Origin: an uncultured virus (IMG/VR IMGVR_UViG_3300026479_000008)
Taxonomy: Duplodnaviria; Heunggongvirae; Uroviricota; Caudoviricetes
Virus record (IMG/VR): IMGVR_UViG_3300026479_000008
Direction: 5' to 3' (one strand)
Length of the DNA stretch: 64,000 nt
Numbering within the stretch: the first letter of the stretch is position 1; the number at the start of each line of letters is the position of its first letter. Shown in pieces: positions 15,109-42,432 of this stretch. The notes under the pieces are model-generated. The model was given only the letters and a program-made list of their open reading frames with translations. It did no database searches and was not told the DNA's origin. The translations under genes and the position numbers were made by a program.

Positions 15109-16308
15109 TTAGAATAATGAAGATGAATATATTAGATTTCTGTTTAGTCTCTGAAGACCTACTGAAGATAATACTCTATTGATAGGATCTATTACAGATT
15201 TTTCAAATTGTGTTTCATAATCTACCTGTGGTGCAATTTCATAAGGATGGGCACCTGGTTGATATGCATACATTTCACATACATTATGTTTACAATGATA
15301 TAATTTTAGCTTTTCGCCATTACCAATCATTTTATACTTGTTTTTATATTTTGGATTCTGATTCATTAAGAAGTTATAGAATCCTGCTGCCTTGACGTTC
15401 GGAGGACATTTTAAACCATATTGAAATTCTATCGTATCATCTACAATGTATTTTTCAATATTATTAGTTCTTTTATTGAAAGCTATTTCATCAACATTAG
15501 ACATCTTAAACTCTTTCTTTGCCGTTTTCAAAAAAGAAACTAATCTACTTAACATCTCTGCAGTTGGCTTTTCAGATAAAATCAATTTAAGAGCTTCAGT
15601 CAAATGCTTTCTTGCTAATGTAGGAGTAGAAGATTGAATAGTATCAAATCCAATCGTCTTAATCTTCTTAAGAGAAGGGTATCTATCGTCTACTTCGAGC
15701 TTATCTTCCCATGCAATGTCTTGTAAATATTTCTTTTTAGCTAACCATATTCCTGAATATGCAATTGTTTCTAAATCGAAATATAAAAAGTTGTCTGTGT
15801 TCGTAACTTCGGCATACTTTGCCATACATTTCGTGATATAGTCTTTGATTCTGAACGTATATAATTCCATAATAAACTTATCAATTGGTAGTTTATTATC
15901 TCCTAGCCATTCAATAGATTCATACATTTCTTCAAACTGAACGTAACATGAATCTGTATCAATATAAACCACGGAAGGTCTTACTAATTTATTCTTAATA
16001 GAAATATTGAAATGTTCATGGACCACAGTATCTTTAGGCCAAAACTCTTGAAAATATTTATTAAGAATCTTTTCAGAATATAGAATTGCATTCTGTCCTT
16101 GTAGTGTAATAGATTCTGCAATGTCTATATTAAAAAAGTGAAACCACTTATTACCAAATGCACCATAGATCGAGTTAAGAGTTACTTTAACGGCCTGTTC
16201 GTATGCAGTAAACTTGGCGGACATTGTTTGATAGTGATCCGCCAAGGTTTGCATTTCATCCCGTGTAAGGTCGTCTTCGGGCTTGTTAATTAGTGTGTTT
16301 ATATCCAT
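15109..16308 (-). CDS. gp43: Family B DNA polymerase, C-terminal part (gp43B)
   Basis: Motif B KVTLNSIYGAFGN, motif C YIDTDS, KKKY; no exonuclease domain or motif A. Confidence 0.9.
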   Translation of the reverse strand: MDINTLINKPEDDLTRDEMQTLADHYQTMSAKFTAYEQAVKVTLNSIYGAFGNKWFHFFNIDIAESITLQGQNAILYSEKILNKYFQEFWPKDTVVHEHFNISIKNKLVRPSVVYIDTDSCYVQFEEMYESIEWLGDNKLPIDKFIMELYTFRIKDYITKCMAKYAEVTNTDNFLYFDLETIAYSGIWLAKKKYLQDIAWEDKLEVDDRYPSLKKIKTIGFDTIQSSTPTLARKHLTEALKLILSEKPTAEMLSRLVSFLKTAKKEFKMSNVDEIAFNKRTNNIEKYIVDDTIEFQYGLKCPPNVKAAGFYNFLMNQNPKYKNKYKMIGNGEKLKLYHCKHNVCEMYAYQPGAHPYEIAPQVDYETQFEKSVIDPINRVLSSVGLQRLNRNLIYSSSLF

Positions 16309-20227: not shown

Positions 20228-21625
20228 TTATCTTAATCTTTTTTTAAGTCTGTCGGCTTTAGTGAAATATTCGTATGAGGTTTGTTTATAATCTTTACGC
20301 TGATCATATAAATCTCCTAGAATTTTCTTTAACATTGAAGTCTCTTGTTTATAGACTACTCCGTTTTCACAAACGATTACTTCTTTATCCTTTCTTCGCT
20401 CAGCGACTTCATGCTTTGCTACCTTTTCAACAAAGGCGTCAGGTGAAATATTAAATTGTCTCATTATAGAAGGATATAGTGATGCAAAGTCAAATGCACT
20501 TACACCTGCATAATATCCAGTAATGGGTTCTTTTACATAAGCACCGGCATATTGTGCATTCTTTTCACTGTCTTCCTTCTTTTCAGATCCAATTCGTTTA
20601 CCTTCTTCTGATAATTTTCGTGCAATCAGAGATTCTGTAACTGCCACTGGCGATGCTGCTTTATATAGAGGCATCTTTGTGATGTTTGCCAAGGTTAAAA
20701 GAACTTCCATCGATTTCAACTTTTGATCTATATAATAAACCAATACGGAATCGACTACATTGTAGTAAATGTATTTTACAAAATCATCCCTATATAAATC
20801 CTGTAGAGATCCTGTAAATTTAATCTTGTTAACATTAAGAACTTGACCTGAGACATAATCAAGTGCATTAGATTCTTTTACCTTTACACTTCTATCATAC
20901 TTATCATATAATTGCATGTAATCTAAGATTCCAATATGTAAGGGTCTGCTGTCATTTCTATCCAAAGATTGTGTCATAGAAACTTCAGCAATATCAATTT
21001 GTAATCTTTTACATCTGTTTACAATATATTGCCAATCATAATTAATAAAGTTCCAGCCTGTCATCATTGGAAACTTAGGTAGGAACTTCATTAAGAACGT
21101 ATAGACCATGTCATATTCTGACTCGAATTTCTGATATTTGAATTCCCAATCCTGATCAAAGTCTTTGAAATACTTATTAGTATCGTCTTCAATTTTTTGG
21201 ATGCTTTTAGAATCCATATCTTCCAATCCTAATACAATAGCTTTATGTTCTGGTGTAATTATGGAAAATGATAGGATTCTACTTTTAGCTTCTTCAGCTT
21301 TTGGAAAGCCATCTACGATTTCAGTTTCAATATCGACGAAGTATGTTTTAGGCATATTGTATGCAAAGATTTCTTCTTTATCCTTTGCGGGTAATGAATC
21401 TAAGAAATAAGTTAAAGAAAACTTATTATATCTTCTTGCACTTCCTAGTTTGACTGATCTGCCATCCCAGTTTTTATGATCTAGACTTCTGCCTTTATCA
21501 TTATCATTACATACATACCAGTTCTGATACTGTGAAATTGGATATTGTTTAAATGCTACTTTACCTTCGGTGTCGTAGTAAGAGATGATAACATCCCTGT
21601 CTCTCTGTTCAATATCTAATATCAT
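20228..21625 (-). CDS. gp43: Family B DNA polymerase, N-terminal part (3'-5' exonuclease plus motif A; gp43A)
   Basis: DIETE, GWNFINYDW, YNVVDS, YAGAYVKEP, DFASLYPS; ends in the fingers helix. Confidence 0.9.
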   Translation of the reverse strand: MILDIEQRDRDVIISYYDTEGKVAFKQYPISQYQNWYVCNDNDKGRSLDHKNWDGRSVKLGSARRYNKFSLTYFLDSLPAKDKEEIFAYNMPKTYFVDIETEIVDGFPKAEEAKSRILSFSIITPEHKAIVLGLEDMDSKSIQKIEDDTNKYFKDFDQDWEFKYQKFESEYDMVYTFLMKFLPKFPMMTGWNFINYDWQYIVNRCKRLQIDIAEVSMTQSLDRNDSRPLHIGILDYMQLYDKYDRSVKVKESNALDYVSGQVLNVNKIKFTGSLQDLYRDDFVKYIYYNVVDSVLVYYIDQKLKSMEVLLTLANITKMPLYKAASPVAVTESLIARKLSEEGKRIGSEKKEDSEKNAQYAGAYVKEPITGYYAGVSAFDFASLYPSIMRQFNISPDAFVEKVAKHEVAERRKDKEVIVCENGVVYKQETSMLKKILGDLYDQRKDYKQTSYEYFTKADRLKKRLR

Positions 21626-22122: not shown

Positions 22123-22148
22123 TTCTACTTAAAATAATGAATCTGTTT
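22123..22148 (-). promoter_or_regulatory. Putative promoter AAAC-N16-GTAGAA
   Basis: Motif copy upstream of the dUTPase-like and polymerase-A genes. Confidence 0.6.
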
Positions 22149-23352
22149 TTAATTCTACTGGTTTTTCTACTGATCTTTTATTAACATTGTTAATAGCTTC
22201 AAAGAGATCATTGTTAACAACTTCTGGCGCGTTGTGTAATTTAGCTAATCTTAAAGAGTTTTTTCTAAACTCTTCTCTTCTTTCGTTATTGTTTGCTAAT
22301 TCTAAAATCTGTGGAATAGAAGCTGCAATATCTTCTTTGTCTACGAAGATTGCAAAATCTTCAAGTTCTATGAAAGGAACTCCTTCTGTTCTGTGAATAA
22401 CGTGAGTTCCCCAGTGTTTGTCAAATAGTGGTATAGTTCCCGCTGCAATAACCTCACACATTGCATATTCAATCATTGAACCATAGAGTCTTTCTGGTAA
22501 GTTAAAGAATTCTGCACCGAACATTGATTTTCCAAGTTCTGCCATTCCTTCTGCTAAATTATAAGGCCCATACATATACATTCTGTCTTCGACTTGTGGA
22601 TATGTAACAGGGTTTTTGATTTCATGAACTTCAAAGATATCTTCTCTTAGAGTTTTTCTATCTTCTTGTAAAAACATAGGAAGAGCTCCAATAGATCTTT
22701 CAACTCCTCTACATTCTGTTACGAAATTATTACCTTTCAATAGTTCCATAATATCGAACATTCTAAAAGGATCTTTAAATCCAGCAAATCTTCCAAAGTA
22801 TGTAGTTCTTCTTTCTTGTTCTTCAACTGGAACCACAATATTAGACCATGCATCATAGTCATAAGGATTAAGATTCATTTCGATTAATGGAGTATCAGGT
22901 GCATGTTCTCTTAATTTATTTGCAAAATTAGATCTTGCAGAATAGTTGAACATAGCGTCCATTGATTTCATGATTTCCCAATACTTATAATTCTTTGCTA
23001 AGTTTGCAGTGTTATGATCTAAGCAGTTTCCTATTTTAATAGGATTTTCTAAACCATAAATACAGTGCTCAATAAAATCTTCGTTGAATTCATCTCCTAC
23101 TGATTTATGCGGATACGATGTGTAATATACTACATCACTTTTTTCAAGTTCTTTAGCGATATTAGGAATATCCTTTCTTTTAAATTCAGTGCAAACAATA
23201 TCTGTAGTTTTATGGCGAGGCCATTTCTTTTCTACCGCTGCATAAATCGTGGCATCATGGCCTTCTTTTATAAGCCAATTATAAAATTCGATTGTGTGTC
23301 TTGTGAGTCCACAACCTTCAACTCCTTTTGCTAATACTAATGCTATTTTCAT
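22129..23352 (-). CDS. agt: GT-B glycosyltransferase resembling T4 DNA alpha-glucosyltransferase
   Basis: N-terminus MKIALVLAKGVEGCGLTRH parallels T4 AGT (ARGLEGCGVTKF); also YFGRFAGFKDP, GVERS, IEYAMCEVIAAGTIPLF. Confidence 0.75.
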   Translation of the reverse strand: MKIALVLAKGVEGCGLTRHTIEFYNWLIKEGHDATIYAAVEKKWPRHKTTDIVCTEFKRKDIPNIAKELEKSDVVYYTSYPHKSVGDEFNEDFIEHCIYGLENPIKIGNCLDHNTANLAKNYKYWEIMKSMDAMFNYSARSNFANKLREHAPDTPLIEMNLNPYDYDAWSNIVVPVEEQERRTTYFGRFAGFKDPFRMFDIMELLKGNNFVTECRGVERSIGALPMFLQEDRKTLREDIFEVHEIKNPVTYPQVEDRMYMYGPYNLAEGMAELGKSMFGAEFFNLPERLYGSMIEYAMCEVIAAGTIPLFDKHWGTHVIHRTEGVPFIELEDFAIFVDKEDIAASIPQILELANNNERREEFRKNSLRLAKLHNAPEVVNNDLFEAINNVNKRSVEKPVELKTDSLF

Positions 23353-25214: not shown

Positions 25215-25430
25215 TTACAAATCTTCTGGAAAATACTTGTCAAGTGCTTCTAACTTATCATCAGCGTCAACTAACATTGATAAAGCTTCTTCTGCATTTT
25301 TATAGAAATCACCAGTTGAGTGATCTCCAATACCAGATCCTTTATTTCCTAAAAGATCTAAAGATAAAAGTGCTTTTGATTTTTCAGCTAAGGCACTAGC
25401 TCTTAGCATTTCGATTAATTTCTTATTCAT
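25215..25430 (-). CDS. Small hypothetical protein
   Basis: 71 aa with GIGDHS motif; overlaps the rmlB stop. Confidence 0.6.
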   Translation of the reverse strand: MNKKLIEMLRASALAEKSKALLSLDLLGNKGSGIGDHSTGDFYKNAEEALSMLVDADDKLEALDKYFPEDL

Positions 25431-26356
25431 AATTGAGTTTCTAGTAGTTTAAATGTTTCTTCTTTTAAAAATTCTTCAAAGGATAAAGGGATCATTTCTC
25501 CTAAAATAGCATTTACCTTTGAGCTATTAAGTGCGTATCTTCTATCATGTCCTAGACGGTCTGCTACAAATTCAAATTCAGGAGTTTTGCCCATGATGTT
25601 TCCTATCATTTCAATAACTTCTAAATTAGTGTATCTTTCCTCTGAACCAATATTAAATACTTCGTTAATTCGGTCTGACATCATTAAGTTATAAATAACT
25701 AAAGTGTTGTCTGTTACGTCCATCCATTCTCTAACTTGCTTTCCATCTCCATAAACAGGAATTTTCTTTCCTTCTTTAATAGAGCGCATGATAGTTGGGA
25801 TAAATTTTTCTTTATGTTGATGAGCACCATAATTGTTACATGTTCTGGTAATAATATATGGAAGATCAAATGTTCTGTTAGCTGAAAGGACTAGCATGTC
25901 TGATGATGCTTTAGTCGCCGAATAATAAGAAGAAGCTACTAGCGGAAATTCTTCATCCGCTACTACGTCCTTACTAATGTCGTCCATGTCGCCGTAAACT
26001 TCATCTGTAGAAATATGAATAAATTTTCTAAGATTAGGGTTTTGTCTAGCACACTCTAAAAGATTGAACGTTCCTTCAACGTTTGTTCTAACGAAAGGTC
26101 TTCCGTCTTTAATAGAATTATCTACATGACTTTCAGCTGCGAAGTGAACAAGGAAATCATATTCTCCTAGATCTTCTACTGTTACTTCGCAAATATCTTT
26201 CTGAATTAATGTTACTTTAGTTTTAATGTTATTTGGATTTGCAGCATAAGTCATTTTATCAACTACTACAATTTCTGCTGTTGGGTTTTTTCTACCAATC
26301 GTGTTTACAAATTCAGATCCTATAAATCCAAATCCACCAGTTACTATTATTCTCAT
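25427..26356 (-). CDS. rmlB: dTDP-glucose 4,6-dehydratase
   Basis: TGGFGFIG, HFAAESHVDNSI, ISTDEVYG, YSATKASSD, RTCNNYG, DRLGHDRRY. Confidence 0.92.
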   Translation of the reverse strand: MRIIVTGGFGFIGSEFVNTIGRKNPTAEIVVVDKMTYAANPNNIKTKVTLIQKDICEVTVEDLGEYDFLVHFAAESHVDNSIKDGRPFVRTNVEGTFNLLECARQNPNLRKFIHISTDEVYGDMDDISKDVVADEEFPLVASSYYSATKASSDMLVLSANRTFDLPYIITRTCNNYGAHQHKEKFIPTIMRSIKEGKKIPVYGDGKQVREWMDVTDNTLVIYNLMMSDRINEVFNIGSEERYTNLEVIEMIGNIMGKTPEFEFVADRLGHDRRYALNSSKVNAILGEMIPLSFEEFLKEETFKLLETQL

Positions 26357-26847
26357 TTGTTATTAATTATTTTAGCCGCTTCATCAGCTGTTAATGACTT
26401 TACGTTTTCTTCTATAATAGAAGGATTCTGTAAGATGGTTTGCTTAGTTATTAAATCTTTAATTCTTGTCGTAGACCAATTATGTGATCTAGTTGTATAA
26501 ATAACCTCAATTGGCATGTGATCTCCTGTGAATCTTTTACCAATGTAATCATCTCCTAAAATTCTAACATCTGGTTTATAAAATTCCATTAAGTTAATAA
26601 GATCTTCTTCTGTTTGATATGTAACTACTTCGTCTACGTATTTAATAGCCATTAAAGTTTTATATCTTTCGTATAATGGAATTACTGGCTTGTATTTAGT
26701 AAATCTAGTTTCCGAAGGATCTCTTTGCAGAAATACCATAAAGTAATCACAGTGTTCTTTTGCTGTTTCGAATGTGTAAATATATCCAGGGTGAAGAAGA
26801 TCGAAGTTCCCTGCTGTAAATCCTATTTTACCTTTATTTTGATCCAT
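26353..26847 (-). CDS. Cytidylyltransferase (TagD/RfaE-like, HIGH family)
   Basis: GNFDLLHPGY, ER..L.AIKYVDEV, GDDY, R.HNWSTT. Confidence 0.85.
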   Translation of the reverse strand: MDQNKGKIGFTAGNFDLLHPGYIYTFETAKEHCDYFMVFLQRDPSETRFTKYKPVIPLYERYKTLMAIKYVDEVVTYQTEEDLINLMEFYKPDVRILGDDYIGKRFTGDHMPIEVIYTTRSHNWSTTRIKDLITKQTILQNPSIIEENVKSLTADEAAKIINNK

Positions 26848-29444: not shown

Positions 29445-29762
29445 TTAATATTCAAATGGTGGAGTTCCATAATCATCTTGTTCGATGCCATACCATACTC
29501 CTGATACTTGTAAATACCACCATCCATATTTAGTGTCGTCTACTACTTTAAATTTCTTAGGTAATTTAACAGATTTTTTTGGAGCTCTAGCAATATACTT
29601 TAAAACTGGAACACCATCGTCCCATGTTTTTTTAGTAGATCTTGCTTGAACTGATTGTCCATCTGAAAACGCATCAAATGCTTTTGCATCTTCTATTTCA
29701 TCTGCTAATAAATCGATAGCTGATTCATTAATGTATTGTTCAAATAATTTTACTTTTTTCAT
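29445..29762 (-). CDS. Putative internal head protein (105 aa)
   Basis: N-terminus MKKVKLFEQYINE|S, capsid-targeting-like. Confidence 0.6.
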   Translation of the reverse strand: MKKVKLFEQYINESAIDLLADEIEDAKAFDAFSDGQSVQARSTKKTWDDGVPVLKYIARAPKKSVKLPKKFKVVDDTKYGWWYLQVSGVWYGIEQDDYGTPPFEY

Positions 29763-29763
29763 T

Positions 29764-31098
29764 TTACCAAACTATGTTTTTATTATCCCATTTAGCCATT
29801 CTTTGCTTAAGCTCTAGTGCTTTACGCTTAGCATCTCTCATATACCAAGAACTTGATGAACCGAATTTTTCTTCTTCAGTTTTCATATTAACGTATGCTG
29901 AAACATATCCTTGATAATCTGACAATATATTTGCAATATAATTGGTTAAATCTCTAGGTCTAATTTCTCTTCCTTTAGGGTCTTTTCCTATTGTTAATTC
30001 GTTATAGTTTCCTAATTCTTTTTTAGCTAAACCAGCCATTAAGAATTGGTGTGCATCTTCGATAATTTCTTTAACTTTCTTGTCTATTTTATCTGGGTTA
30101 TCAGCTTTCTTCGCAAGAATATCGTTATACCTTGTTAAGTTATCCTCTTTGATTTTCTTAGGGTTTGTAAGTGCAGTAGCTCCAGATTTTGCCTCTGCTC
30201 TTGCAGATGTCTTATCATCGGTAGATAAAGAAGCTCTTAATGTGTCTAAATTAATAATGTAACATTCGTCAGACATTTCCGCAATTCTTTTAATGTTACC
30301 TAATCCCGTTCCACTATATTGGTTGTGTGATTTGTTAACACCGACAGTATCTTTAGATCCAGGGTATTTACCCATGTTCTTAAGTCTTCTTGTGTTTTTC
30401 TTACCACCTATTGTGTCGCTGTTTCTATTCCATATTGAATCGTTCTGAAACATTTCATTTTTTCCATTAGAAACAGCTAATAAACAATTTCCAGGAATCA
30501 TTTCAACATATCTTCCGGAAGAAGGAGCATATTCATTTTCTTTTTCATTTCTAGAAATCCAAAATACAATTACGTTTCCGAATGTTTTTGCTTTCTTATA
30601 AACTTCAACTGGGTTGCTATTAGAAATTATCATATCATCGGTAACTTTATCTAGTGCTACTTTAGCAAGACCGTATATACCTTTAATTAATTCCTTACCA
30701 CCTTTTTTGATGTCTATTAATCCTCTTAACTTGGAAGAAGCTAGAGCTTCATTAAGTTCTAAAGATTCAGTTGCTCTGTATTTTGCAAATTTACCCTTTT
30801 TAATTGTTTTAACTAATTCAGCTTCGCTATCGTCCATGTGACCATATACATCATTATGTGTTGCTGCGTTTACTATTTCACCAGCATCACCAATAAAATA
30901 AGTTCCTCCTGCATATTCGTCTCCATCCATATCTAGATCAAAACCACCGGAATCTAATGAATTTTTAGAAATTGTGAATTCTTTTCCGTCTGCTTTTGAA
31001 AGAGCAGCTGCTAATTTTTTTGCTATTTTAGCAGTATCTTTCTGCTTCATAACCTTTGCTTCATTGATAAAATTATCGAAGTTAGTATATAGTTTCAT
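29764..31098 (-). CDS. Putative head-packaged two-module protein (444 aa)
   Basis: MKLYTNFDNFINE|A; internal ESLELNE|A; GATATATA at 31123-31130. Confidence 0.6.
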   Translation of the reverse strand: MKLYTNFDNFINEAKVMKQKDTAKIAKKLAAALSKADGKEFTISKNSLDSGGFDLDMDGDEYAGGTYFIGDAGEIVNAATHNDVYGHMDDSEAELVKTIKKGKFAKYRATESLELNEALASSKLRGLIDIKKGGKELIKGIYGLAKVALDKVTDDMIISNSNPVEVYKKAKTFGNVIVFWISRNEKENEYAPSSGRYVEMIPGNCLLAVSNGKNEMFQNDSIWNRNSDTIGGKKNTRRLKNMGKYPGSKDTVGVNKSHNQYSGTGLGNIKRIAEMSDECYIINLDTLRASLSTDDKTSARAEAKSGATALTNPKKIKEDNLTRYNDILAKKADNPDKIDKKVKEIIEDAHQFLMAGLAKKELGNYNELTIGKDPKGREIRPRDLTNYIANILSDYQGYVSAYVNMKTEEEKFGSSSSWYMRDAKRKALELKQRMAKWDNKNIVW

Positions 31099-31132: not shown

Positions 31133-34100
31133 TTAATGTAAGGAATCATGTGCTAATTCATTAGCTAAGTCTGGATTATCATCTGTGAAATCTGATAATT
31201 CTTCGTCAGTCATTTCTTTTCCATTAGAATATTCACCATAACTAAAGAATGCATCTGTGAAATCTGGATAATCTTTCATATCAACATCTTCCATTTCTAA
31301 TGAACTAATATCTACTTTCTTTCCTTTAAATTTAATATAATTAGCTTCGTTAATAAAAGATTCTAATGTTAAACTAACAACTGGTTTAATTCCAGTTAAT
31401 ATTCTTTTTCCAAATTTAGAAAGACCAATTCCATTTTCACTTACTGTAAAGTATTTAGAATTTCTTCTCATCCATCTTTTATTATCGATTGATTTTTCTT
31501 TTAGAATATTATTGAATTCTTCTTCTGTTAATACACCATCCGCTAATGCCTCGATCATTGCGTTTCTGACTTTAGCAGTTCTACCTGAAGTTTGTGCAGG
31601 ATGATTATCGGTATATCTTCTTTTTATTTGAATTTTAGATTCTCTAAGACCCGGTTTCATTACGTTTAATTCCCACCACTGTTCTAATTGGTGATAAATA
31701 TTTGCACCCATGTTTGAAATCATGAAGTCAATTACATCATCATAATTGTCTTTTTCATCTTGATAAAAACCAGGAGTATCGATATATTCTTTACCCATTA
31801 TCTTTCTAACTGCTCTTTCTGGCATAGCATCGATTTCTTTTAAAAATTCTTCGAAATCTTCATCGTTTTTAAAACCCTTAGCTTCAATAACCATTGATTC
31901 CATTAGGCCAATAGCAATCTCTCCAACTTCTCTATCGCCGCCGTCAACATATCTTTTGTTAAGTATTGCAAATTTAAAACCATCTGCTTTTATCGTATAC
32001 ATTGGCATCATACTATCACTATAGTCGTATTTGTATTTACCTGCTTTTAATTCTTTACCGATTGCAAAGAAATCTTTAGCTTTACCTACTAAATCTGCAA
32101 GATTATCTAAGTGGTCACCGGCGTCGTCCTTTTCATTAACTAATGATTCATAAACTCCTTTTTCAATGTTCTTGATTAAGAGTTTAGCACCCTTCTTGTC
32201 AAGTTCATTTTGAATAAAGTCCATCATTTCGTTGGGATCTTCAGCATCTATACCAAATTCAGATGCTAAGTTTTGATATGCATCAAATTCCATATTAGAA
32301 ATAGTGTCTTCTAAGTCTGCATACACATCTTCATTAACTGCTGATTCTACCATTACTAGCCCTATATCCTTATATGCTATTTCATGCTCTCCACCGTCTT
32401 GATCTAGTGCAAATACTGATTTATCATGCCACATTGCAGCATTGTCATCGTTATTAGAATCAGGATTATAAATGATATATTCTTTTCCGTTTCCGGTTTG
32501 AATCATTGCATCATCTGCATCTCCTAATTTTTTTAATAATGACTTTTTAGTATACCTTTCTTCAACAGCTTCACCTGACGTATATTCAAAATCATTATAT
32601 AGTGCCTTTAACCATTCTAAAAACTCTGGAGTTTTCTTCATTACTTTCTTATGTCCGTATTCTTTAAAGAATTCTTTCTGAAAAGTATCAAATGATTTGT
32701 GATTACCTATCATTTGGTGAATGTCAGACATAACACCCTCACTGATAACTAATTTTACATCTTTGTTTTTACCAGCTACTGCATCATCTAGTTCATTTGT
32801 AAGAGCTTTCTTTTTTGCTGTTAAATCTATTAGCTGCTGTCTAGTTGCTGCTTTCTCATCACTTCCATCTTCCGCAGCGATGTATATCTTTACAATATCT
32901 TTCATCTTATTAACTGTTTCTCCAAATTCCTTTGAAATCTTGTTAATAGATCTAGCTTCTAATATATTAGATTCTTCAATGTATTCTCCTAATTCAGGAT
33001 CGTCCCATCCATTAGGATCGGCTAATACTGATTGTAAATCTTCTCTTGAACCTGTCATTTCAACTTCTGGCCAATTGCCACCAGGGCCGTTCATTGTTAA
33101 AACTTTCATTTTAACATTATATTTCTTTAAAAGCTTTTTGAGTGTTTTTGATTTAGGATCTATTGCATCCATTACTACAGTAGCTTCATTTAAATTTTCG
33201 TCTAGCTTATCAAAGAATCCACCATGTTCACTTTGTAAATCTTCACCATACTTGTCGTCCCATATTTTAGCTAATTCATCTTTAGTAATTTTACCTTTAT
33301 ATTTTCCCATGATTTCAACATAGACACTACCATATTCATATTCAAAATCTTCACCATAAGAAAAATCCCATGCCTTTTCAACATCTTTAATTGTAAGCTT
33401 TTTGGCTTCAGTAACCTTTGATTCATACCATCCGTTTTCGTAATCGTCATCATCTTCATAATCATCATACTCAGGTTCTTGATACCATGATTGATTTGGA
33501 TCAGATTCTGCTTCTTCAGTAAAGTCATGTCTTTTCCAATTAAATCTTGGATCTTCAACTAATGCAGGGAATAATGTCTTTTTCTTTTTATCTTTGGTCT
33601 TTATTTTACCGAATGCTAAATCAATACCAAGTTGTCTTAATTCTTTAAATGAACCTTTCATTGTTTTAACATCTTCTTCAGTATATCCATTCATTGTAGC
33701 AACAAGATCATAATAATCCATTCCACCAAATTCACCATATCCTTCATAATCCTTTTCCGTCCACTTGTTACCCATATTATCATACATAAATACTGTAATC
33801 ATGTTCTGTCTTTCAGAACCTATTTGTGTGTTTGTATCGGATGTAAGCCATGAAAATTGACCTTCAACTATCATCTGTTCATGTAACAATTGAGCACCAG
33901 TCGTTACAATGTTTAAATAGCTTTCAGGAATTCCATTTACAAAGTTATGTAATTCTGGTTCGAAATCTGGCATACCACATGCATATCTTGGATATGTTGC
34001 TCCTTCTGTATTTACAAGAATACTCATTCCATAATACTCTCCAAGCTCACCTGATTCAGTGTTACAATATAATACAAATACCTGTGGCACTTGAACTTTA

Positions 34101-34351
34101 AAGTTAGATTGTAATGGATATTCGTTATGACATCCTAATTCTTTAGTAGTGTATACGTCTAAGGAATGTAATTCTTTATCATATTTAGTTAATTCTCTAT
34201 ATGGAATAGAAGCTCTTTGGTTAAATAGATCTCCCCAATAAGAAGGCTTTCTCAAGGAATATTTCCCAGAAACCTTTTTGTATACTTTATATAAATCAAC
34301 GTTTTCGTTCATTGAATTTACAAAGCTTTCGAATGTTTTTTTAGTGCTCAT
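31133..34351 (-). CDS. Putative head-packaged polyprotein (1072 aa, about 11-12 modules)
   Basis: MSTKKTFESFVNSMNE plus about ten E-S-x-[VILM]-x-E-type linkers. Confidence 0.65.
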   Translation of the reverse strand: MSTKKTFESFVNSMNENVDLYKVYKKVSGKYSLRKPSYWGDLFNQRASIPYRELTKYDKELHSLDVYTTKELGCHNEYPLQSNFKVQVPQVFVLYCNTESGELGEYYGMSILVNTEGATYPRYACGMPDFEPELHNFVNGIPESYLNIVTTGAQLLHEQMIVEGQFSWLTSDTNTQIGSERQNMITVFMYDNMGNKWTEKDYEGYGEFGGMDYYDLVATMNGYTEEDVKTMKGSFKELRQLGIDLAFGKIKTKDKKKKTLFPALVEDPRFNWKRHDFTEEAESDPNQSWYQEPEYDDYEDDDDYENGWYESKVTEAKKLTIKDVEKAWDFSYGEDFEYEYGSVYVEIMGKYKGKITKDELAKIWDDKYGEDLQSEHGGFFDKLDENLNEATVVMDAIDPKSKTLKKLLKKYNVKMKVLTMNGPGGNWPEVEMTGSREDLQSVLADPNGWDDPELGEYIEESNILEARSINKISKEFGETVNKMKDIVKIYIAAEDGSDEKAATRQQLIDLTAKKKALTNELDDAVAGKNKDVKLVISEGVMSDIHQMIGNHKSFDTFQKEFFKEYGHKKVMKKTPEFLEWLKALYNDFEYTSGEAVEERYTKKSLLKKLGDADDAMIQTGNGKEYIIYNPDSNNDDNAAMWHDKSVFALDQDGGEHEIAYKDIGLVMVESAVNEDVYADLEDTISNMEFDAYQNLASEFGIDAEDPNEMMDFIQNELDKKGAKLLIKNIEKGVYESLVNEKDDAGDHLDNLADLVGKAKDFFAIGKELKAGKYKYDYSDSMMPMYTIKADGFKFAILNKRYVDGGDREVGEIAIGLMESMVIEAKGFKNDEDFEEFLKEIDAMPERAVRKIMGKEYIDTPGFYQDEKDNYDDVIDFMISNMGANIYHQLEQWWELNVMKPGLRESKIQIKRRYTDNHPAQTSGRTAKVRNAMIEALADGVLTEEEFNNILKEKSIDNKRWMRRNSKYFTVSENGIGLSKFGKRILTGIKPVVSLTLESFINEANYIKFKGKKVDISSLEMEDVDMKDYPDFTDAFFSYGEYSNGKEMTDEELSDFTDDNPDLANELAHDSLH

Positions 34352-34371: not shown

Positions 34372-35451
34372 TTAAACTCGGTTAGGCTTTATTTTATATT
34401 TAAATTTACCTTGTGTAATAGAATATATTTGTAATTCGCTAGTTTTTCCAGGTAATTTCTTGTAATAGTGAAAAGCTACTATTTCATGATCTTTAGACTC
34501 TATAAAAAGGAATGGAGTAGGTATATCTCCTACTGCTGAAATTACATCGTCTTGTATTTCAGTAAATGTTCTAACGGAAGGCTCAGTCTCTATTATACTT
34601 TTAATTTTTTCTGCAGTTTTAGAGTCACTTAGCTTTCCTAATTCTACGTCATTAAATTTAATTACTAATGCGCCGTTATCTTTATCTCCAGGACCTATTT
34701 TAAAATCTCTTTCACTAGAAGAAAGGGCCTGAATATCTGTCTTAGTTAAATTTTGAATATGCTTAAATCTTTTTCCACCTACAGTTCCCCATTCATTTAT
34801 CCAACCTCCACCGGCAGCCATATCTTTACCATCTCCGTCCGGGTTGATTTCTTCAATATTATATTTTACTGCGTCATATAATGCCGTTAACTTCGGTACA
34901 TAAGTACTATTAATTCCCTGGTGTTTTGCACCTGTTCTCCAATTTTGTAACATGCCCTTTGACATTTGAGCTTCTTTTAACTCACATTTACCAAGGGGTG
35001 GTTTAATTGGTGACCACCTTTCATTATATAATTCTAAGTCAGTATCGGCCGCACCTCCACCTATTTTTATATTTTCTACAATATACGCTAGCATTATTTC
35101 TCCAGCACCAATTCCATTATCGTCTCTTCCAATATTAAACAATTCGTTTGCTTCGCTTTTATTTAACATTAAATATTGAAAAACTACTCCGAATGTATCG
35201 TCATCCATTTTAGAAAGCCATAACCTGCCATCAGGTTGTTGTTTAACATCCTGTGTTGAAGTAAACTTAACACCTTGCCATGGACACTTATTCTTTTTAA
35301 ATGTTCTATTAATTGAATTAAATAAATTCTGTTGGGCAGATTTACTTCCGGTCGTTGCAACTCCAATATAGGATTCTATAATTAACGCTTCATTTTCAGC
35401 GTTGGTTTTTGCAGCACTATGTAGTGCTCTTTCAAAATCGTACCTATCCAT
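34372..35451 (-). CDS. Putative restriction-endonuclease-like (PD-(D/E)xK) protein
   Basis: GIGAGEIML...GGGAADTDL...CELKE; LIIE|S near the N-terminus. Confidence 0.45.
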   Translation of the reverse strand: MDRYDFERALHSAAKTNAENEALIIESYIGVATTGSKSAQQNLFNSINRTFKKNKCPWQGVKFTSTQDVKQQPDGRLWLSKMDDDTFGVVFQYLMLNKSEANELFNIGRDDNGIGAGEIMLAYIVENIKIGGGAADTDLELYNERWSPIKPPLGKCELKEAQMSKGMLQNWRTGAKHQGINSTYVPKLTALYDAVKYNIEEINPDGDGKDMAAGGGWINEWGTVGGKRFKHIQNLTKTDIQALSSSERDFKIGPGDKDNGALVIKFNDVELGKLSDSKTAEKIKSIIETEPSVRTFTEIQDDVISAVGDIPTPFLFIESKDHEIVAFHYYKKLPGKTSELQIYSITQGKFKYKIKPNRV

Positions 35452-37315
35452 TGTTTTCTAAAAATTGTTTAAATGTTAATAATGATTCAGCAACTTCATT
35501 TGATTCTGAAGTACCTACTGAATCTTCTAATTTTTTCTTAAGTTCGCCATACATTTTATGTAATGCTTTGGGTGTTGTTGACTTAAATAATCCTTCATCT
35601 CCGTCTAGCATTGCGTTTCTAACCTGAGTCGCTGAAATATTATTGTCTGTTCTTGGAATTTCAAATAATCCAAAATCACTCCTAACTCCAAGATCTTCTC
35701 TATAAGAATCTTTATTTACTTGGAATCCGTAAGTTTTCATTCTATCGCTTCCTGTTCCCCATAATACGGGTTCATAAGTTGGTCTCATTGCATTGAACAT
35801 TGTATCAATACCTCCGGTTGGAATTACAAAGATTTCTTTTAAGAATGGATATTGTTTTTGAACCGCCTTAAACATATCTAATTGTGTCTTCTCATCATAA
35901 GGTCTTTTAAATGCATCTTCCTTTTTCTTATTCTTTGCTTTTACTAATAAAACAACCACAGGATATCCATTTTCTTTGTGTATAGTTTCTAATACTTTAG
36001 CATGTCCAAGTGTAAATGGTTGGAATCTACCAACAAACATATTTACTAATTCTCCTCCTTGTTCAGGATGATCTACTTTAAGTGCTTCATTTAAATTAAC
36101 ACTTGTCTTTACTTTATTATGTAATATGAAATTATTAAAGTCGTATATGGAATTTTCATCGGTATTCTCTACAAATACTTTCTTATCTATAGTTTCTACT
36201 ATTTGATTTAAATGCTCTAACATTTCTGCATTTATGATATCGCTTTCCTTGCTTCTCTTTTTTCTAAAAGAACCTAAAGTTATTTTAAATAATTCTGCAA
36301 GTATTTCGTTTTCAACATAAGAAAGAGTGGTCTCGTTCTTAATGTATTTAGTATTTAGTTTAAAGGAATCTGAATCTGCAAAATCAGCTGATTCAAAGTT
36401 AACACCAATAAACTTAGCAGAGTGTTCTTTAACATACGTATTAAACATCACTGACATTAATTCAATATATCTCCAGTCTGCTGTTTCTTCATTTAGTTGA
36501 ATGTCTTTCATTTCAAATGTAGAAATAAATTCAATAAGACCAGCAATAGTAATTTGATACATGTGGCTTGATCTCTTATTTTCACTAACAGTTCTTGTAA
36601 AATCTTCTAATTTAAAAGATCTAGATTTTTTCTCATCAATAAAAGAAACTATTAATCCGTCAATTTCTACTTCAAAGTCTTCATTTAACGTAGGAGAAAC
36701 TGCATTTGGATTAAATGTCTTAATCATCTTTTGAGTGAAAGGTAATCTTGCATCTGTATTTGGATCATAATCAAATGCTTCAGAAAACTCCTTATCTGAC
36801 ATAGATAAAACACTTATTAATTCTTCTTTTTGCATTTGAGATAGCATACCATCAAACACAATGCTAGGTCCTTGAACCTCTAATATCTTTGCCCATTTAT
36901 TTAATATAATTGGATCGCTAATTGTTTTTCTAATCTTACCTGACTCATTCATAGTTTGAATGTGCGTAAGTATTAAATTGTTTTTAGGTAGTTTAGTATA
37001 TTTATATTCTGACACGTTTAATTCAGGTAAATATTCAAAACCAAATTTCCAATCATGTGGCATTTGTTCCTTTATACTAGGATCTAAACTTTGGATGTGC
37101 TTGACACCTGTTTCATATAAACCTACTATTGTTCTGTCTATCATGTTCATTCTAGAATCTCCAGATTTGTAATATTCAAATTTAGTCTGGTTTCTTCTAA
37201 CGTGAAATGAAGCTCCTTGTATTTTTTCAGTTACTAGAACCCTGCTATTCAACATATCTTGAAATGCATTGATATTAGTTTCCTGAAATACTTGTCTTAG
37301 TTTTTTAAGTGCCAT
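35444..37315 (-). CDS. RNA-ligase-like nucleotidyltransferase domain fused to a HIGH-family (NMNAT/cytidylyltransferase-like) domain
   Basis: VTEKIQGASF (ligase motif I-like), EIDGLIV; C-terminal GRFQPFTLGH, GSDR, ISATQVR; domains separated by VNLNE|A. Confidence 0.7.
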   Translation of the reverse strand: MALKKLRQVFQETNINAFQDMLNSRVLVTEKIQGASFHVRRNQTKFEYYKSGDSRMNMIDRTIVGLYETGVKHIQSLDPSIKEQMPHDWKFGFEYLPELNVSEYKYTKLPKNNLILTHIQTMNESGKIRKTISDPIILNKWAKILEVQGPSIVFDGMLSQMQKEELISVLSMSDKEFSEAFDYDPNTDARLPFTQKMIKTFNPNAVSPTLNEDFEVEIDGLIVSFIDEKKSRSFKLEDFTRTVSENKRSSHMYQITIAGLIEFISTFEMKDIQLNEETADWRYIELMSVMFNTYVKEHSAKFIGVNFESADFADSDSFKLNTKYIKNETTLSYVENEILAELFKITLGSFRKKRSKESDIINAEMLEHLNQIVETIDKKVFVENTDENSIYDFNNFILHNKVKTSVNLNEALKVDHPEQGGELVNMFVGRFQPFTLGHAKVLETIHKENGYPVVVLLVKAKNKKKEDAFKRPYDEKTQLDMFKAVQKQYPFLKEIFVIPTGGIDTMFNAMRPTYEPVLWGTGSDRMKTYGFQVNKDSYREDLGVRSDFGLFEIPRTDNNISATQVRNAMLDGDEGLFKSTTPKALHKMYGELKKKLEDSVGTSESNEVAESLLTFKQFLENNG

Positions 37316-37325
37316 ATTATATTAT

Positions 37326-38696
37326 TTATCTTCCGTACTTTATGATTCCCATCAGCTGATTGATAGCAGCAAAAGTACCTGTTAGTTTCATAGTCTTTCC
37401 TTTATATACAAAAACTATTCCTTCAGTTGGTATGATAGATTCTACTCCTCCAATTCTATCTAATCTCTCTAGTTCTTTCATTACCTTTTCGATCTGAGTA
37501 ACGCTTCCATCTTTTTTGATCTTTTCAGATTCTGATCTAATTTGATTATGTAGTCTTTGCATCTCTTTGTCTGGATTTGCAGCTACAAAATTAGAAGCAT
37601 TCATAAGAATTATAGACCCTAGTTCTAAAAATAAATCTTCAAACGGTCTAATGTTTTCTTTATATTTCTTTTTAACATCTTCTTTGTCAAATTTCTTAAC
37701 AGAAGCAGCTTCATCTTTTCCTATCTCCTTTGCAAGTGATCTCATATTTAAAGACTTTTTATCTCCATAAGCCCATCTTAATAATAAACCTTCCTTATAG
37801 TCTTGTTGTAAATCTGGGAAATTTGCATCTATTGTTTCTCTCCACCACATTTCATGATATCTAGAAACTTCGTCACCGTCTGTTAAGTTATAACGATCTC
37901 TTAATTTTTCAATCTGCTTTATAAATTTAGCTTGATTTTTATCAAAATTAATATCTTTACCTAGTTTTAAAATCTGAGGAGGAATTATTGTAAATGTCTT
38001 TTGAACATCGGCATCTACTTCCTTTAAAGCTTTGACTAATTCTCCTGCTATTTTTCTAGATCCTGTAATATTACCATTCCCATCAGTTTCTTGAATATCG
38101 TGAAATTGAAGAACATCTCTTTCGTAATAGATTACATTTGGGTTTTTAGAATAGATTAATTCTATATTTATAAAATCTTTACCGTCATTAAATATGGACT
38201 GATCTTTAATTTTTGGAAGAGCTTCATTTAGATCTTTAGCTGCAAACACGTATGTTTCTCGCACTAAAGGTACCTCATGCTTTTCAAACATTTCTATAAT
38301 ACCGTCTAAATCAACGGGACTAATTAATTGACCTTTATTTCTAGAAAACATCGTAACTCCGTTTTTTACGGTTGCTAATAGATTTTGACCGTCTGTTTTT
38401 TCAGTGGCTACCTCTTCAAAGTTTAATTCTCCTTGAAGACCGGACGTTACGATCTTTTTAAAATCTGCGAATGTTAAATCTTTTTCATCGAAAGGATGAG
38501 ACATGTGACCAGCTGCACCGCCTTCTAAGATTAATTCTTCTTTAAGTGTATTGTATTTTTCAACGATATATTCGTCAAATGATAAAACTTTACTCTTATT
38601 TTCACTCATATAATGTGCAACATATTCCTCTCTGGTCATGCCTTGTGCATCTGCGTGATGTTGAATAAAATCTACAAAGTTGTTATTTAGTTCCAT
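37326..38696 (-). CDS. Ligase-fold nucleotidyltransferase-like conserved phage protein
   Basis: LILE|GGAAGHMSHPFD, TEKTDGQN (KxDG), EGIVF, KLTG; preceded by VLSFDEYIVE. Confidence 0.65.
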   Translation of the reverse strand: MELNNNFVDFIQHHADAQGMTREEYVAHYMSENKSKVLSFDEYIVEKYNTLKEELILEGGAAGHMSHPFDEKDLTFADFKKIVTSGLQGELNFEEVATEKTDGQNLLATVKNGVTMFSRNKGQLISPVDLDGIIEMFEKHEVPLVRETYVFAAKDLNEALPKIKDQSIFNDGKDFINIELIYSKNPNVIYYERDVLQFHDIQETDGNGNITGSRKIAGELVKALKEVDADVQKTFTIIPPQILKLGKDINFDKNQAKFIKQIEKLRDRYNLTDGDEVSRYHEMWWRETIDANFPDLQQDYKEGLLLRWAYGDKKSLNMRSLAKEIGKDEAASVKKFDKEDVKKKYKENIRPFEDLFLELGSIILMNASNFVAANPDKEMQRLHNQIRSESEKIKKDGSVTQIEKVMKELERLDRIGGVESIIPTEGIVFVYKGKTMKLTGTFAAINQLMGIIKYGR

Positions 38697-38763: not shown

Positions 38764-40890
38764 TTATAAATATCTATCGATAAATTCTTCTTTGCTACCA
38801 ACAAATGATCTAGTCTTTGGGCCGAAAAGAACAATCTCAGCACCTTCTGATTTAAGCCAATCTGCAACTTTTTGAGCTTTTTTCTTATCAGCTGATAACC
38901 ATACTGTGTCAAATTCAGGACCATGAGACCTTTGCATTACAATACCTCCTTTTTCATTTGTAAATTTAAACTTATCTCCAAGAGCAACACTTACTTTAAT
39001 ATTTTTATCAAAATTCTTTTTATGATTCTTAAAAGAATATGCTAAAGCACCTGAGTAACTTTTAGTGTCAGTTGTAAATTCATCTAAAGATGTAGTAGTA
39101 CCTTCATAAATATTTGATTCAAATGCTGGAACTAATCCAGTTTCTCCGTAGATATCTGCCATCATCCATTTTTTAGAACCTTCATCCCATAAATAAACGA
39201 ATTCTGCACCACCTTCGTAATTTGCATCTTTAATATATTTGTTAATATTCTTAACATTACCTTTCATCAGATTAACATCTCCGCCATAGAAATTAATTTT
39301 CTTAACGTCTTTATCTAAACCTGAATTATCTCCATTTTTAAGAACAAAATCTACATTTTTACCACTTTTAAAGGTTGATTTAATAATAGGCAACATGTTT
39401 TCAGGATATGAATCATAGTGAGTATATACTGAAGTAATATTTCCTTTCTTGTCTATTTTACCAAATTGACCTCTAGTTCCTTCATTAATTACATAATTGA
39501 TTACTTCGTTAAATTTAGATTCTTTTAAAGAAATTTCTTCTTCAGTTAATTGAAACTTAACTGATTCTTCTACTGCGTTAAATCCTGCTAATAATTTTTC
39601 AGCAAGTTTAGATTCACCAATAGATTCTAAATATAGAGCAGTGCCTTCAGCAACTCCAATACCTGACCATCCGGCAGCATTTGAAATTCTAGAATAATAC
39701 TCATCTAATATCTGTGATATTTTCTTTGCTCCTACTATAATAGCTTGTTTACCAAGAGTTAAAGGATTAACAGTAACACTTCCTAATCTTCCTTTGATAA
39801 TTTTTTCAGTAGCTGTTCTTTCTCTATGGAAATTAGCATCAGTTAATGCTTCAGCGTAAATATATTTAATAGCTCCTAAGTGAGAAATTTTATCAGCTGT
39901 TAAGCTTCCTAGTTCTGCAAATATTTTATTGTATTGAGTTAATACTTTCTTTGCATCTCTTTTATATTTAATATCTAAGGCCTCATTCATTAATGATTCT
40001 CCTAATCCCCAGTAATTTGCGTGATCGTATTCAACTGGGAATATACCTAAATCACCTTCATCACCTTCTTCACTTTTAACAATTTTAGCAAGATAGTAAT
40101 CTCCCTTTGCAGTATCTTCATATCCGTATGAATCTGCATCTGATCCCATTTCTTTTTTAAATTGCTTTGATATCTTTCTCCAATTATCGATAGCGATTAT
40201 TTCAACTTCGCTTCCAATTGAATTTTCAGTAGTATCTCCTACTTTAAATTTAGCTTTTTCAGTAACTAAAGATTCTGAAAATTCTTCAATATGTTCCATA
40301 TCGATTTCATCTTCTCCCTTTAATTCTTTTTGTACTTCTTTAGACTTTACTAATTTTGAAAGATCTTTCATAGTGATTTCTCCATCAATGAAGTCAGCTA
40401 GTATATAGTATTGATTAGAAGAATATCCTTCACTGTCTCTAAAATCACCAATTTCTTCAATTGCTGCTTTAGTAACGGTCTTAGCTTCAGTAACTAAAGA
40501 TTCGCTTAATGAATTTCTTAGACCACAGTGTACGCATTCTACCGTTCCGTCCTTGTCAATTTGCTTATATAAATGTCCTTTTTTATTAGTACACTTTGGT
40601 TCGTCTGATTCAGTAACTTCTTCTGATGCAGTAACATCTTCTACCTCTACTTCTATTTCAGCTATTTCTTCTTCTGAAACATCTCCAAATATTTTTGAGA
40701 TAATTGATTCTTTCTGATCTTCTTCTAAACCTTCGAAAGAAGTTAATCCTAATTCATCTAGAATAGCAGCTATTTTACCAACTGATTCTTGTCTTTTTAA
40801 ATTGTTTTCTTCTCTAAGTTTACTAACAGATTCCTGTTTTCTAATCTCTGTAAACGATTTAAATGAAGAAATTTTATTAACTTGTGCCAT
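38764..40890 (-). CDS. Putative head-packaged polyprotein (708 aa, about 7 modules)
   Basis: MAQVNKISSFKSFTE; linkers EEVTE|S, ESLVTE|A, ESLVTE|K, ESLMNE|A, YVINE|G, ESNIYE|G; GATATATA at 40925-40932. Confidence 0.65.
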   Translation of the reverse strand: MAQVNKISSFKSFTEIRKQESVSKLREENNLKRQESVGKIAAILDELGLTSFEGLEEDQKESIISKIFGDVSEEEIAEIEVEVEDVTASEEVTESDEPKCTNKKGHLYKQIDKDGTVECVHCGLRNSLSESLVTEAKTVTKAAIEEIGDFRDSEGYSSNQYYILADFIDGEITMKDLSKLVKSKEVQKELKGEDEIDMEHIEEFSESLVTEKAKFKVGDTTENSIGSEVEIIAIDNWRKISKQFKKEMGSDADSYGYEDTAKGDYYLAKIVKSEEGDEGDLGIFPVEYDHANYWGLGESLMNEALDIKYKRDAKKVLTQYNKIFAELGSLTADKISHLGAIKYIYAEALTDANFHRERTATEKIIKGRLGSVTVNPLTLGKQAIIVGAKKISQILDEYYSRISNAAGWSGIGVAEGTALYLESIGESKLAEKLLAGFNAVEESVKFQLTEEEISLKESKFNEVINYVINEGTRGQFGKIDKKGNITSVYTHYDSYPENMLPIIKSTFKSGKNVDFVLKNGDNSGLDKDVKKINFYGGDVNLMKGNVKNINKYIKDANYEGGAEFVYLWDEGSKKWMMADIYGETGLVPAFESNIYEGTTTSLDEFTTDTKSYSGALAYSFKNHKKNFDKNIKVSVALGDKFKFTNEKGGIVMQRSHGPEFDTVWLSADKKKAQKVADWLKSEGAEIVLFGPKTRSFVGSKEEFIDRYL
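40258..40503. repeat. Exact 18-nt direct repeat encoding the linker ESLVTE
   Basis: ttcagtaactaaagattc at 40258-40275 and 40486-40503. Confidence 0.85.
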
Positions 40891-40923: not shown

Positions 40924-42432
40924 CTATATATCTCCGTCAAATTTGACTTTCTTAATACTATACTCAAATTTCTCTTGTTTATAAATTTTCTGCCTCGCCT
41001 TACTATGTTTATATAAATAGTTATCCCATTCGTCAGTTCTAATGTCATCCACAAAATCGACAATTAATACAGCTTCTTTAGACTCATGCTGCCTTAGACC
41101 TCTACCAATTGACTGCCTGATGATCACCTCGGACTTAAATGACTCTGTAAAGAATATATTGTGTATTTTCTTAATGGAAATTCCAGTAGAAAATGTACCA
41201 TAACTCGCTACAATAACTACTTCATCTCCTGCTTCCATTTTCTTTTTATATTCTTCTCTAATATCTTTATCTGTTCCTCCATCTACATAAAAAACTCTTT
41301 TATCTGAGTTTTGGCGGAGCTGTTCGTATATTTTTTTACCATGTTCTATTCTATGAAACAGAACTAGAGAGTTCCTAGGGACCTTGCCAACAACATTACA
41401 TATAAAATTAAGTCTACCAAAAGAATTAATAATATAATTTTGTTCCAGTTGAAAAACATCCTTCCTATCATACTTATTAAATGCTAATTCTTCAAATGCT
41501 TTTTTGGCGGAATCAGGTGCGTAATTCATTTCAATTACTTTTACTTTACATTTAGCGATGTGACCCTGACTCTGTAAAAATGCAGCCTTAACTTCGCTAA
41601 TTACAGGACCCGTTTGACTCATTAGTGTTAACTTGTCTAAAGATCCATCTTTAGGAATTGTACCCGATAAACCATATTTATATTGTGCACTTGTACATTT
41701 TTGTAATATAGTCTTAATAGAATTAGATTTCGCTTTATGAGTTTCATCTACAATAACAGCATCGAACTGTTGAAAATATTCTTTAGGCTTTTTAACTAAG
41801 GACTGATATGTACCTATCACTACATTCCTGTCTGACTTTATTTTCTGGCCGGCATATATCTGTTGTATCTTTAGTTTTATTCTATTCTTATTATTGTATT
41901 CGTGGAAATCTTCATGGGCCTGAACAACTAGAGAAACATTAGGAACTATAAATAATATCTTTTCGGCCTTTTCTTTTTCTAACATATACGCCACTGTTAA
42001 AAAACTAATAAGTGTTTTCCCAGCGGAAGTTGCTAATTCAGCTAAACATCTCCTAAACTTTAGGATATTAAATGCTGTTTCTATTTGATAATCCCTTGGA
42101 ACAAATTTACTACCCTCAAAAAATTCTAAAGCCCATGCTTCAAATGATTCTGCACCTATGTTTCTATCAAATAGTCTTTGAATTCCATTAAGTTTAAGAT
42201 CAAACTTATATTCCTTGCAAATGAGCATAACGTATCTCCAAAGACCGGCGGGAATCCACTTATCGTCTTTGATGTATGAAACATATCCGTCCCATATTCC
42301 TTTCTTGACTAAAGGATTAAATCTCCAACTATCAATTCTTTTAGTTAAAGATATTTTAATCTGCTCTAGTTCAAGTTCCTCTGCTTCATCAATTCGTAAG
42401 AATTGATTATCATCTGTTAGAGTTAAAATCAA
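40924..42432 (-). CDS. uvsW: SF2 helicase UvsW
   Basis: PRDYQ, ATSAGKT, VDETH, GLSGT, STGISIK, QSIGRGLR. Confidence 0.92.
   Translation of the reverse strand: MILTLTDDNQFLRIDEAEELELEQIKISLTKRIDSWRFNPLVKKGIWDGYVSYIKDDKWIPAGLWRYVMLICKEYKFDLKLNGIQRLFDRNIGAESFEAWALEFFEGSKFVPRDYQIETAFNILKFRRCLAELATSAGKTLISFLTVAYMLEKEKAEKILFIVPNVSLVVQAHEDFHEYNNKNRIKLKIQQIYAGQKIKSDRNVVIGTYQSLVKKPKEYFQQFDAVIVDETHKAKSNSIKTILQKCTSAQYKYGLSGTIPKDGSLDKLTLMSQTGPVISEVKAAFLQSQGHIAKCKVKVIEMNYAPDSAKKAFEELAFNKYDRKDVFQLEQNYIINSFGRLNFICNVVGKVPRNSLVLFHRIEHGKKIYEQLRQNSDKRVFYVDGGTDKDIREEYKKKMEAGDEVVIVASYGTFSTGISIKKIHNIFFTESFKSEVIIRQSIGRGLRQHESKEAVLIVDFVDDIRTDEWDNYLYKHSKARQKIYKQEKFEYSIKKVKFDGDI

Follow-up and report, generated by a model that had tools for sequence, protein, structure and literature searches.

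We identified two genes in an uncultured T4-like phage that encode chains of small protein modules, several of which are recognisable as whole stand-alone genes of other phages. It is probable that such small genes were captured behind a capsid-targeting leader and chained, and that the chains would be cut to native ends in the prohead; the motifs of the chains point to both cleavage and a role as virion cargo. An initial annotation of this DNA had proposed that formerly independent early genes were converted into cargo behind cleavage linkers. The observation on which it was based is confirmed, and its interpretation is partly supported.

A T4-like phage with two module chains

The window analysed here is a stretch of 64,000 nt and is part of a single contig of 169,565 bp. 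Pfam and PHROG scans of the genome identified T4-type genes for the portal, gp32, UvsW, primase and a split family-B polymerase. The genes for a gp23-type capsid protein (Gp23, E 6e-45) and a gp21-type protease-scaffold protein (Peptidase_S77, 39 bits with a cut-off of 27) both lie just beyond the edge of the window. The PDB match of the capsid protein is T4 gp23. Among GenBank phages the capsid match reveals no cultured close relative, the nearest being an uncultured 462-kb phage (52%), Lak (38%), and PTm1 and PAU (about 32%). These relatives and the A-rich start regions point to a predicted host among the Bacteroidota. The capsid protein carries LYE at position 44, and the counterparts in three relatives, matched by eye, are LYE, INE and LME, which suggests that the protease of this phage follows the T4 rule. 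T4 gp21 cuts after L/I-X-E (PMC9026906). No homology was found between the chain and the protease-scaffold protein.

The family-B DNA polymerase is encoded in two genes (window 20228-21625 and 15109-16308) with ribonucleotide reductase and clamp-like genes between them. A DNA alpha-glucosyltransferase-like gene (PF11440) is found near sugar-nucleotide enzymes (window 22129-23352 and 25427-26847); these genes hint at modified DNA, and thus at modification-dependent restriction as a pressure on the cargo. The C-terminus of a 1164-aa tail-fibre-like protein (window 53608-57102) matches PHROG 38766, and by eye we take it to resemble a Hint (intein-like) domain.

The two chains consist of about 12 and seven modules, respectively (Table 1). 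The motifs quoted in the initial annotation are all present: MIVE/GQFSW at residues 163/164 and FINE/ANY at 1002/1003, followed by DYPDF, in the 1072-aa protein, and VINE/GTRGQ at 470/471 in the 708-aa protein. The latter ORF falls outside the interval 31133..34351 in which they had been reported. All three junctions (IVE, INE and INE) fit L/I-X-E. A linker pattern drawn up after inspection of the proteins occurs six times in the 1072-aa chain and four times in the 708-aa chain, compared with 16 times in the remaining 50,998 residues that the genome encodes. Shuffled chains average 0.33 and 0.34 occurrences, and the observed number was reached in none of 2000 shuffles of either. The [ILVM]-x-E motif itself is short and is also found inside modules and in ordinary proteins. 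Internal translation starts at the junctions were considered and rejected, as the P1 codons are GAA or GAG.

Table 1. Features of the chain genes and their surroundings, in window coordinates
Feature	Position	Strand	Basis
1072-aa chain; about 12 small modules, [ILVM]-x-E linkers	31133..34351	-	ORF and sequence
N-terminal leader, 16 residues, ending xxE; putative capsid-targeting propeptide	34304..34351	-	sequence
MIVE junction, residues 160-163; Glu163 at the Met1 position of stand-alone homologues	33863..33874	-	
GQFSW module, residues 164-315, including acidic tail and next linker	33407..33862	-	homology, fold prediction
390-465 module; PHROG 5922	32957..33184	-	stand-alone 79-85 aa relatives
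FINE junction, residues 999-1002, ahead of the last module	31346..31357	-	
DYPDF module, residues 1003-1072; homologous to stand-alone genes of 60-75 aa, same end point	31136..31345	-	
Adjacent genes of 444 aa and 105 aa with leaders; same design with a single cargo	29445..31098	-	
708-aa second chain; exchanges modules with the 1072-aa chain in relatives	38764..40890	-	ORF and relatives
VINE junction, residues 467-470 of the 708-aa chain; Glu470 where PHROG 1987 genes have Met1	39481..39492	-	
GTRGQ module, residues 471-596 of the 708-aa chain; PHROG 1987 / cyanophage T4-GC 66	39103..39480	-	
GATATATA, putative late-promoter motif ahead of the 708-aa gene	40925..40932	-	
GATAAATA variant at the head of the consecutive 623-aa, 359-aa and 1072-aa genes; putative promoter	37323..37330	-	

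The leader pattern, which was made by hand, is common to 13 ORFs of the genome and to many homologues. The leader of the 1072-aa chain presumably resembles the T4 CTS sequence. In a 623-aa cytidylyltransferase-like enzyme (window 35444-37315), in P0003 and P0005, and in 13 other GQFSW proteins, a leader-like F-x-x-F-x-x-E peptide is C-terminal rather than N-terminal, and on the 623-aa enzyme it is possibly a targeting tag. A 445-aa AAA ATPase (window 6808-8145) carries an N-terminal leader ending in LNE together with an internal ESMLLE site, and this enzyme may be packaged and trimmed too.

Neither chain, whole or as 19 separate pieces, has a Pfam match above cut-off, and the Pfam and PHROG scans named no function for any module. 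A hit of DUF6329 on the first module fell below cut-off and was rejected. PDB sequence and Foldseek searches of the modules gave no match, the ESM Atlas returned unnamed viral clusters or nothing, and a GTDB scan gave two partial matches.

The motif GATATATA occurs 31 times on the coding (minus) strand of the genome and twice on the other strand. It precedes head, tail and leader-bearing genes, including those for the protease, sheath and tube, and its sites in the window are at 1521, 5919, 8180, 31130, 40932, 45237, 45467, 46607, 53586 and 61970. It is likely a late promoter that differs from that of T4. A late-like motif is found ahead of 29 of 30 GTRGQ chains. Only two of 14 fused GQFSW ORFs have one within 100 nt upstream, and there is none directly ahead of the 1072-aa gene. 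A second, early-promoter-like motif has nine copies, all outside the window, and is absent from the chain gene cluster. Loci L130, L134, L136, L151, L164, L166 and L168 combine a different upstream motif, CATATTTAT, with leaders of the type M-x-x-F-D/N-L-K-K, which suggests clade-specific promoters and targeting peptides.

Stand-alone relatives of the modules

The stand-alone families proposed in the initial annotation exist for all three modules it singled out. The GQFSW module is a whole homologue of stand-alone genes of 112-155 aa. We searched for its relatives among proteins of 83-266 aa; from the 120 listed of 184 matches, 10 lacking the module start were dropped. The residue preceding the module is Glu in 107 of the 110 remaining among the matches listed and Met in two, and one protein begins MTE. 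In 31 of 108 Glu-type forms among the matches listed, the protein consists of nothing but the module and a leader no longer than 36 aa. At fused junctions with distinct upstream 12-mers, P1 is Glu in 77/77 and P3 is I, L, V or M in 77/77 (I or L in 69, V or M in eight), while P4-P10 vary.

With P0108, a divergent Met-start protein, as the seed, a scan of viral contigs gave 47 loci representing 37 distinct contexts. At P1, 27 of these have ATG and are stand-alone genes, 10 have Glu, and none has anything else. Each of the 27 start codons is the first ATG to follow an in-frame stop (one of the genes is at a locus edge), and the genes share the pattern MG[QFLMY]FS[WF]. These genes are mostly located within runs of small co-oriented ORFs, and in L147 a stand-alone GTR-family gene lies in the same run. 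Searches of GenBank phages by tblastn with the GQFSW and DYPDF modules, P0108, P0160 and the whole 1072-aa protein returned nothing, and the stand-alone GQFSW and DYPDF families therefore rest on uncultured contigs.

The GQFSW tree, rooted at its midpoint only, contains 78 rows: a random draw of 40 from 97 Glu-type database proteins, all loci, and the Met forms. All 51 Glu-type rows fall in one group (100/95) that also holds the Met-start protein P0067, and the labels change twice, compared with 22.8 times when shuffled. Median identity is 0.63 among fused forms and 0.51 among stand-alone forms, which are thus more diverse, and the stand-alone loci range from 19 to 47% GC. The simplest reading is one capture and one reversion, capture being the probable direction. 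The module is predicted to fold alone (pLDDT 88.8), and it has no match in the PDB.

The GTRGQ module matches PHROG 1987 from profile position 2 (E 5.5e-12) and 33 records of GenBank phages, in every case from query residue 1 (23-33% identity, E 4e-5 to 6e-3). Eight homologues out of the 33 were examined, and in all eight the annotated CDS begins one codon ahead of the match. These stand-alone relatives are M[GA]TR genes and are found in cyanophages and streptococcal prophages. Fused contexts were taken from 80 of 100 viral loci, which reduce to 31 distinct contexts. In 31/31 an xxE with its Glu directly precedes GTRGQ, and the neighbours on both sides differ. The module is predicted to fold alone (pLDDT 93.6). 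No solved fold matched, and in four of five structural matches with E <0.001 the model resembles predicted phage proteins of 90-162 aa (TM 0.58-0.77); the fifth is 239 aa long.

That the captured genes were early ones is borne out by measured timing in one case. The stand-alone GTRGQ homologue of P-HM2, PHM2_061, is listed as Early (A) in both light and dark (PMC5082946 S2 Table), a class that by our count of the same table comprises 18 of 242 genes, and the neighbourhoods described above fit. However, the two streptococcal prophage homologues examined lie between terminase and portal, in a packaging operon.

DYPDF is a real stand-alone family with a loose start register. Word-index searches gave no relatives of either the DYPDF or the first module; these blanks are weak evidence because phmmer later gave 772 representatives as DYPDF relatives, of which 150 were listed, four of them without the anchor motif. 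In DNA, 53 loci reduce to 41 distinct contexts, and 38 of these are stand-alone DYPDFCDA genes. P1 in the window lies 25 residues before the Asp of the motif. Met1 of the stand-alone forms lies 17-31 residues before this Asp in 20 database proteins among the matches listed, 10 of them within three residues of the window P1, and 14-33 residues before it in the 38 loci, 13 of them within three residues. In ten of these 13, a second Met at -14 could be the real start, and many stand-alone genes start at a Met 5-11 residues into the window module. The initial annotation had the modules starting exactly at the predicted cut, for which Met1 of stand-alone homologues within one to three residues of P1' would be support. 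This is borne out exactly for GQFSW and GTRGQ and loosely for DYPDF. Its counter-scenarios, namely homologues that always span the linkers or a lack of stand-alone homologues, were not seen.

Among the matches listed, 95 of 126 longer DYPDF proteins carry an [ILVM]xE within the 10 positions surrounding P1 (about 25% expected). At the other end, the protein stops 46 residues beyond the anchor in 27 of the 68 terminal forms listed; of the 78 continuing forms listed, 34 carry the Glu of an [ILVM]xE at the same offset. It appears that Glu often replaces the DYPDF stop codon, which a TAA-to-GAA change would achieve in one step. The DYPDF tree is poorly resolved, with 13 label changes compared with 18.6 when shuffled.

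The 390-465 module has a stand-alone homologue of 79 aa in L161 (E 4e-29 with our own profile), located in the same run as a stand-alone GQFSW gene. Its similarity to genes of 83-85 aa in T4-like phages of Serratia and Klebsiella is weak (E 0.07-0.08), and the Met-at-P1 register of these homologues was set by eye and was not reproduced by MAFFT. In the Klebsiella phage the gene comes after gp32 and is preceded by a sigma-70-like site. A weak hit of FRD3 on the Serratia homologue (E 0.011) was rejected. In the close relative L119 (8254-8375), the cytidylyltransferase gene is followed by one that starts with Met directly on this module with no leader, and the locus ends after 40 codons.

Overall, stand-alone forms were found for four of 18 modules and not for the other 14, in a biased pool built mostly around those four. 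A dedicated search found no stand-alone relatives of the first module, and no stand-alone copy of a module occurs in the phage's own genome. Nearly all modules have relatives with Glu at P1 or within three residues of it, the module at residue 675 (1/4) being the exception. Relatives differ in which modules they carry and in what order, the breaks falling at the linkers, and modules move between the 1072-aa and 708-aa chains. Sixteen columns are invariant over 41 rows, in captured modules and stand-alone genes alike.

Proposed capture and cutting, and alternative readings

The route we favour would begin with the fusion of a gene behind a short leader ending in [IL]-x-E, Glu replacing Met1; the leader-plus-module proteins are candidate intermediates. 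Cassettes would then have been chained and swapped at linkers that resemble worn-down leader ends. The shuffling is observed, and its mechanism may be of this kind. The chain would be made late and carried by its leader into the prohead core, where the gp21-type protease would cut after each Glu. A 10-residue leader is enough for packaging into the T4 head (PMC9026906, PMC9958956). By analogy with T4 IPI-III, the pieces would leave the head along with the DNA and do their work before phage genes are transcribed, the likeliest roles being to counter host defences or to help take over the host. A cut after Glu would give GQFSW and GTRGQ the same Gly/Ala N-terminus as Met removal, by the established specificity of MAP (PMC10052503), gives the stand-alone proteins. 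This identity of ends may be why no spacer is tolerated at these two junctions. The exact Met-to-Glu register is the best sequence-level sign of real cuts.

The modules might also have been captured whole into an uncut, multidomain ('polyvalent') protein in which they work tethered, the xxE linkers being acidic spacers left as relics of leader fusion. Some polyvalent proteins, such as the N4 virion RNAP and ArdC, are described as delivered unprocessed (PMC5512222). We consider this very unlikely, because relics should decay, whereas Glu at P1 and a hydrophobic P3 persist at all 77 GQFSW junctions while other positions drift, and there is zero spacer ahead of the GQFSW and GTR modules. It is also improbable, though a little less so, that the chains are cut and discarded as accessory scaffold or core filler like T4 gp22/67/68, the old gene role being lost. 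T4 core proteins with many gp21 sites are reported to be degraded, not delivered (PMC9958956, PMC9026906), and parts of the chains are Glu-rich and scaffold-like in style. However, the modules retain the invariant residues of stand-alone genes, the modelled GQFSW and GTRGQ modules fold compactly, and the predicted cuts fall at native ends and not within modules.

A third alternative concerns the direction of transfer. The modules could have arisen as cargo and escaped as stand-alone genes, or could shuttle, which we regard as unlikely, if somewhat less so than either reading above. The Met-start forms P0067, inside the fused GQFSW group, and L119, whose copy ends at the locus edge, suggest that there may be traffic both ways; the DYPDF tree needs at least two changes on starred branches, and the GQFSW tree has no outgroup root. 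Against this, the fused GQFSW forms make up one well-supported and less diverse group while the stand-alone forms are more varied in identity and GC content, and the GTR stand-alones span cyanophages and streptococcal prophages. Capture, as claimed in the initial annotation, is favoured by the single GQFSW group, and is tempered by the lack of a true root, the Met-start row inside that group, and the four of 18 modules with stand-alone forms.

We give about even chances to a broader version of the capture model, in which a wide group of uncultured T4-like phages generally converts early genes to virion cargo, with Glu for the start Met (and often the stop), shuffled chains, and a head protease that frees native ends. 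If so, the cut motif would be a readable tag listing small phage proteins of unassigned function that act in the first moments of infection, and the proteins so tagged would form a ready list of candidates for anti-defence and takeover. PHROG 1987 / T4-GC 66, GQFSW and DYPDF, all widespread and uncharacterised families, would be marked as worth delivering before transcription. The chains would also illustrate how ordinary small genes can give rise to internal proteins of the T4 style. Polyprotein processing is characteristic of RNA viruses, and there are hardly any descriptions of it in tailed phages. We found no description of module chains of this kind in the literature searched, which consisted mostly of papers available without subscription.

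Comparison with known systems

The chains share T4-type head genes and a short N-terminal leader ending in an L/I-X-E-type site with the T4 proteins IPI, IPII, IPIII and Alt. As with the T4 internal proteins, small unrelated cargo stands behind a putative common leader (as described in PMC12373910, PMC9026906 and PMC3012670); IP1-3 are reported to be injected restriction inhibitors with only the leader in common (PMC12373910). However, T4 internal proteins carry one cargo per gene, giving one small mature protein each, whereas in this phage as many as a dozen cargos follow one another in a chain with internal sites and are shuffled, single-cargo forms being found in relatives. Also unlike the T4 proteins, several cargos here correspond to whole genes that other phages carry separately. 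The Pfam and PHROG scans gave no sequence match of the chains to the T4 internal proteins or Alt.

Head proteases that cut after Glu at a short motif, with several sites per protein, are also described for the ejection proteins of SPN3US and phiKZ (PMC5694885, PMC7411985, PMC10052503). In those systems, however, the cuts are described as removing propeptides from one mature protein at an A/S/G-X-E motif, and the proteins are not chains of former genes.

Polyvalent proteins likewise combine many unrelated domains in one polypeptide, with solo versions and proposed virion delivery and processing (PMC5512222), and unrelated domains that also occur solo are found here in the four stand-alone modules and in the shuffling. 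Polyvalent proteins differ in that they are described as carrying known enzyme domains and a proposed cis-acting zincin MPTase (PMC5512222). No polyvalent-type effector or MPTase-type peptidase domain had a Pfam match above cut-off in the chains or the 19 pieces; the modules here are uncharacterised units of 40-150 aa, and the proposed protease is the head protease acting in trans. Considering these likenesses together, the chains would work like T4 internal-protein delivery, with a polyvalent-like architecture minus the polyvalent domains.
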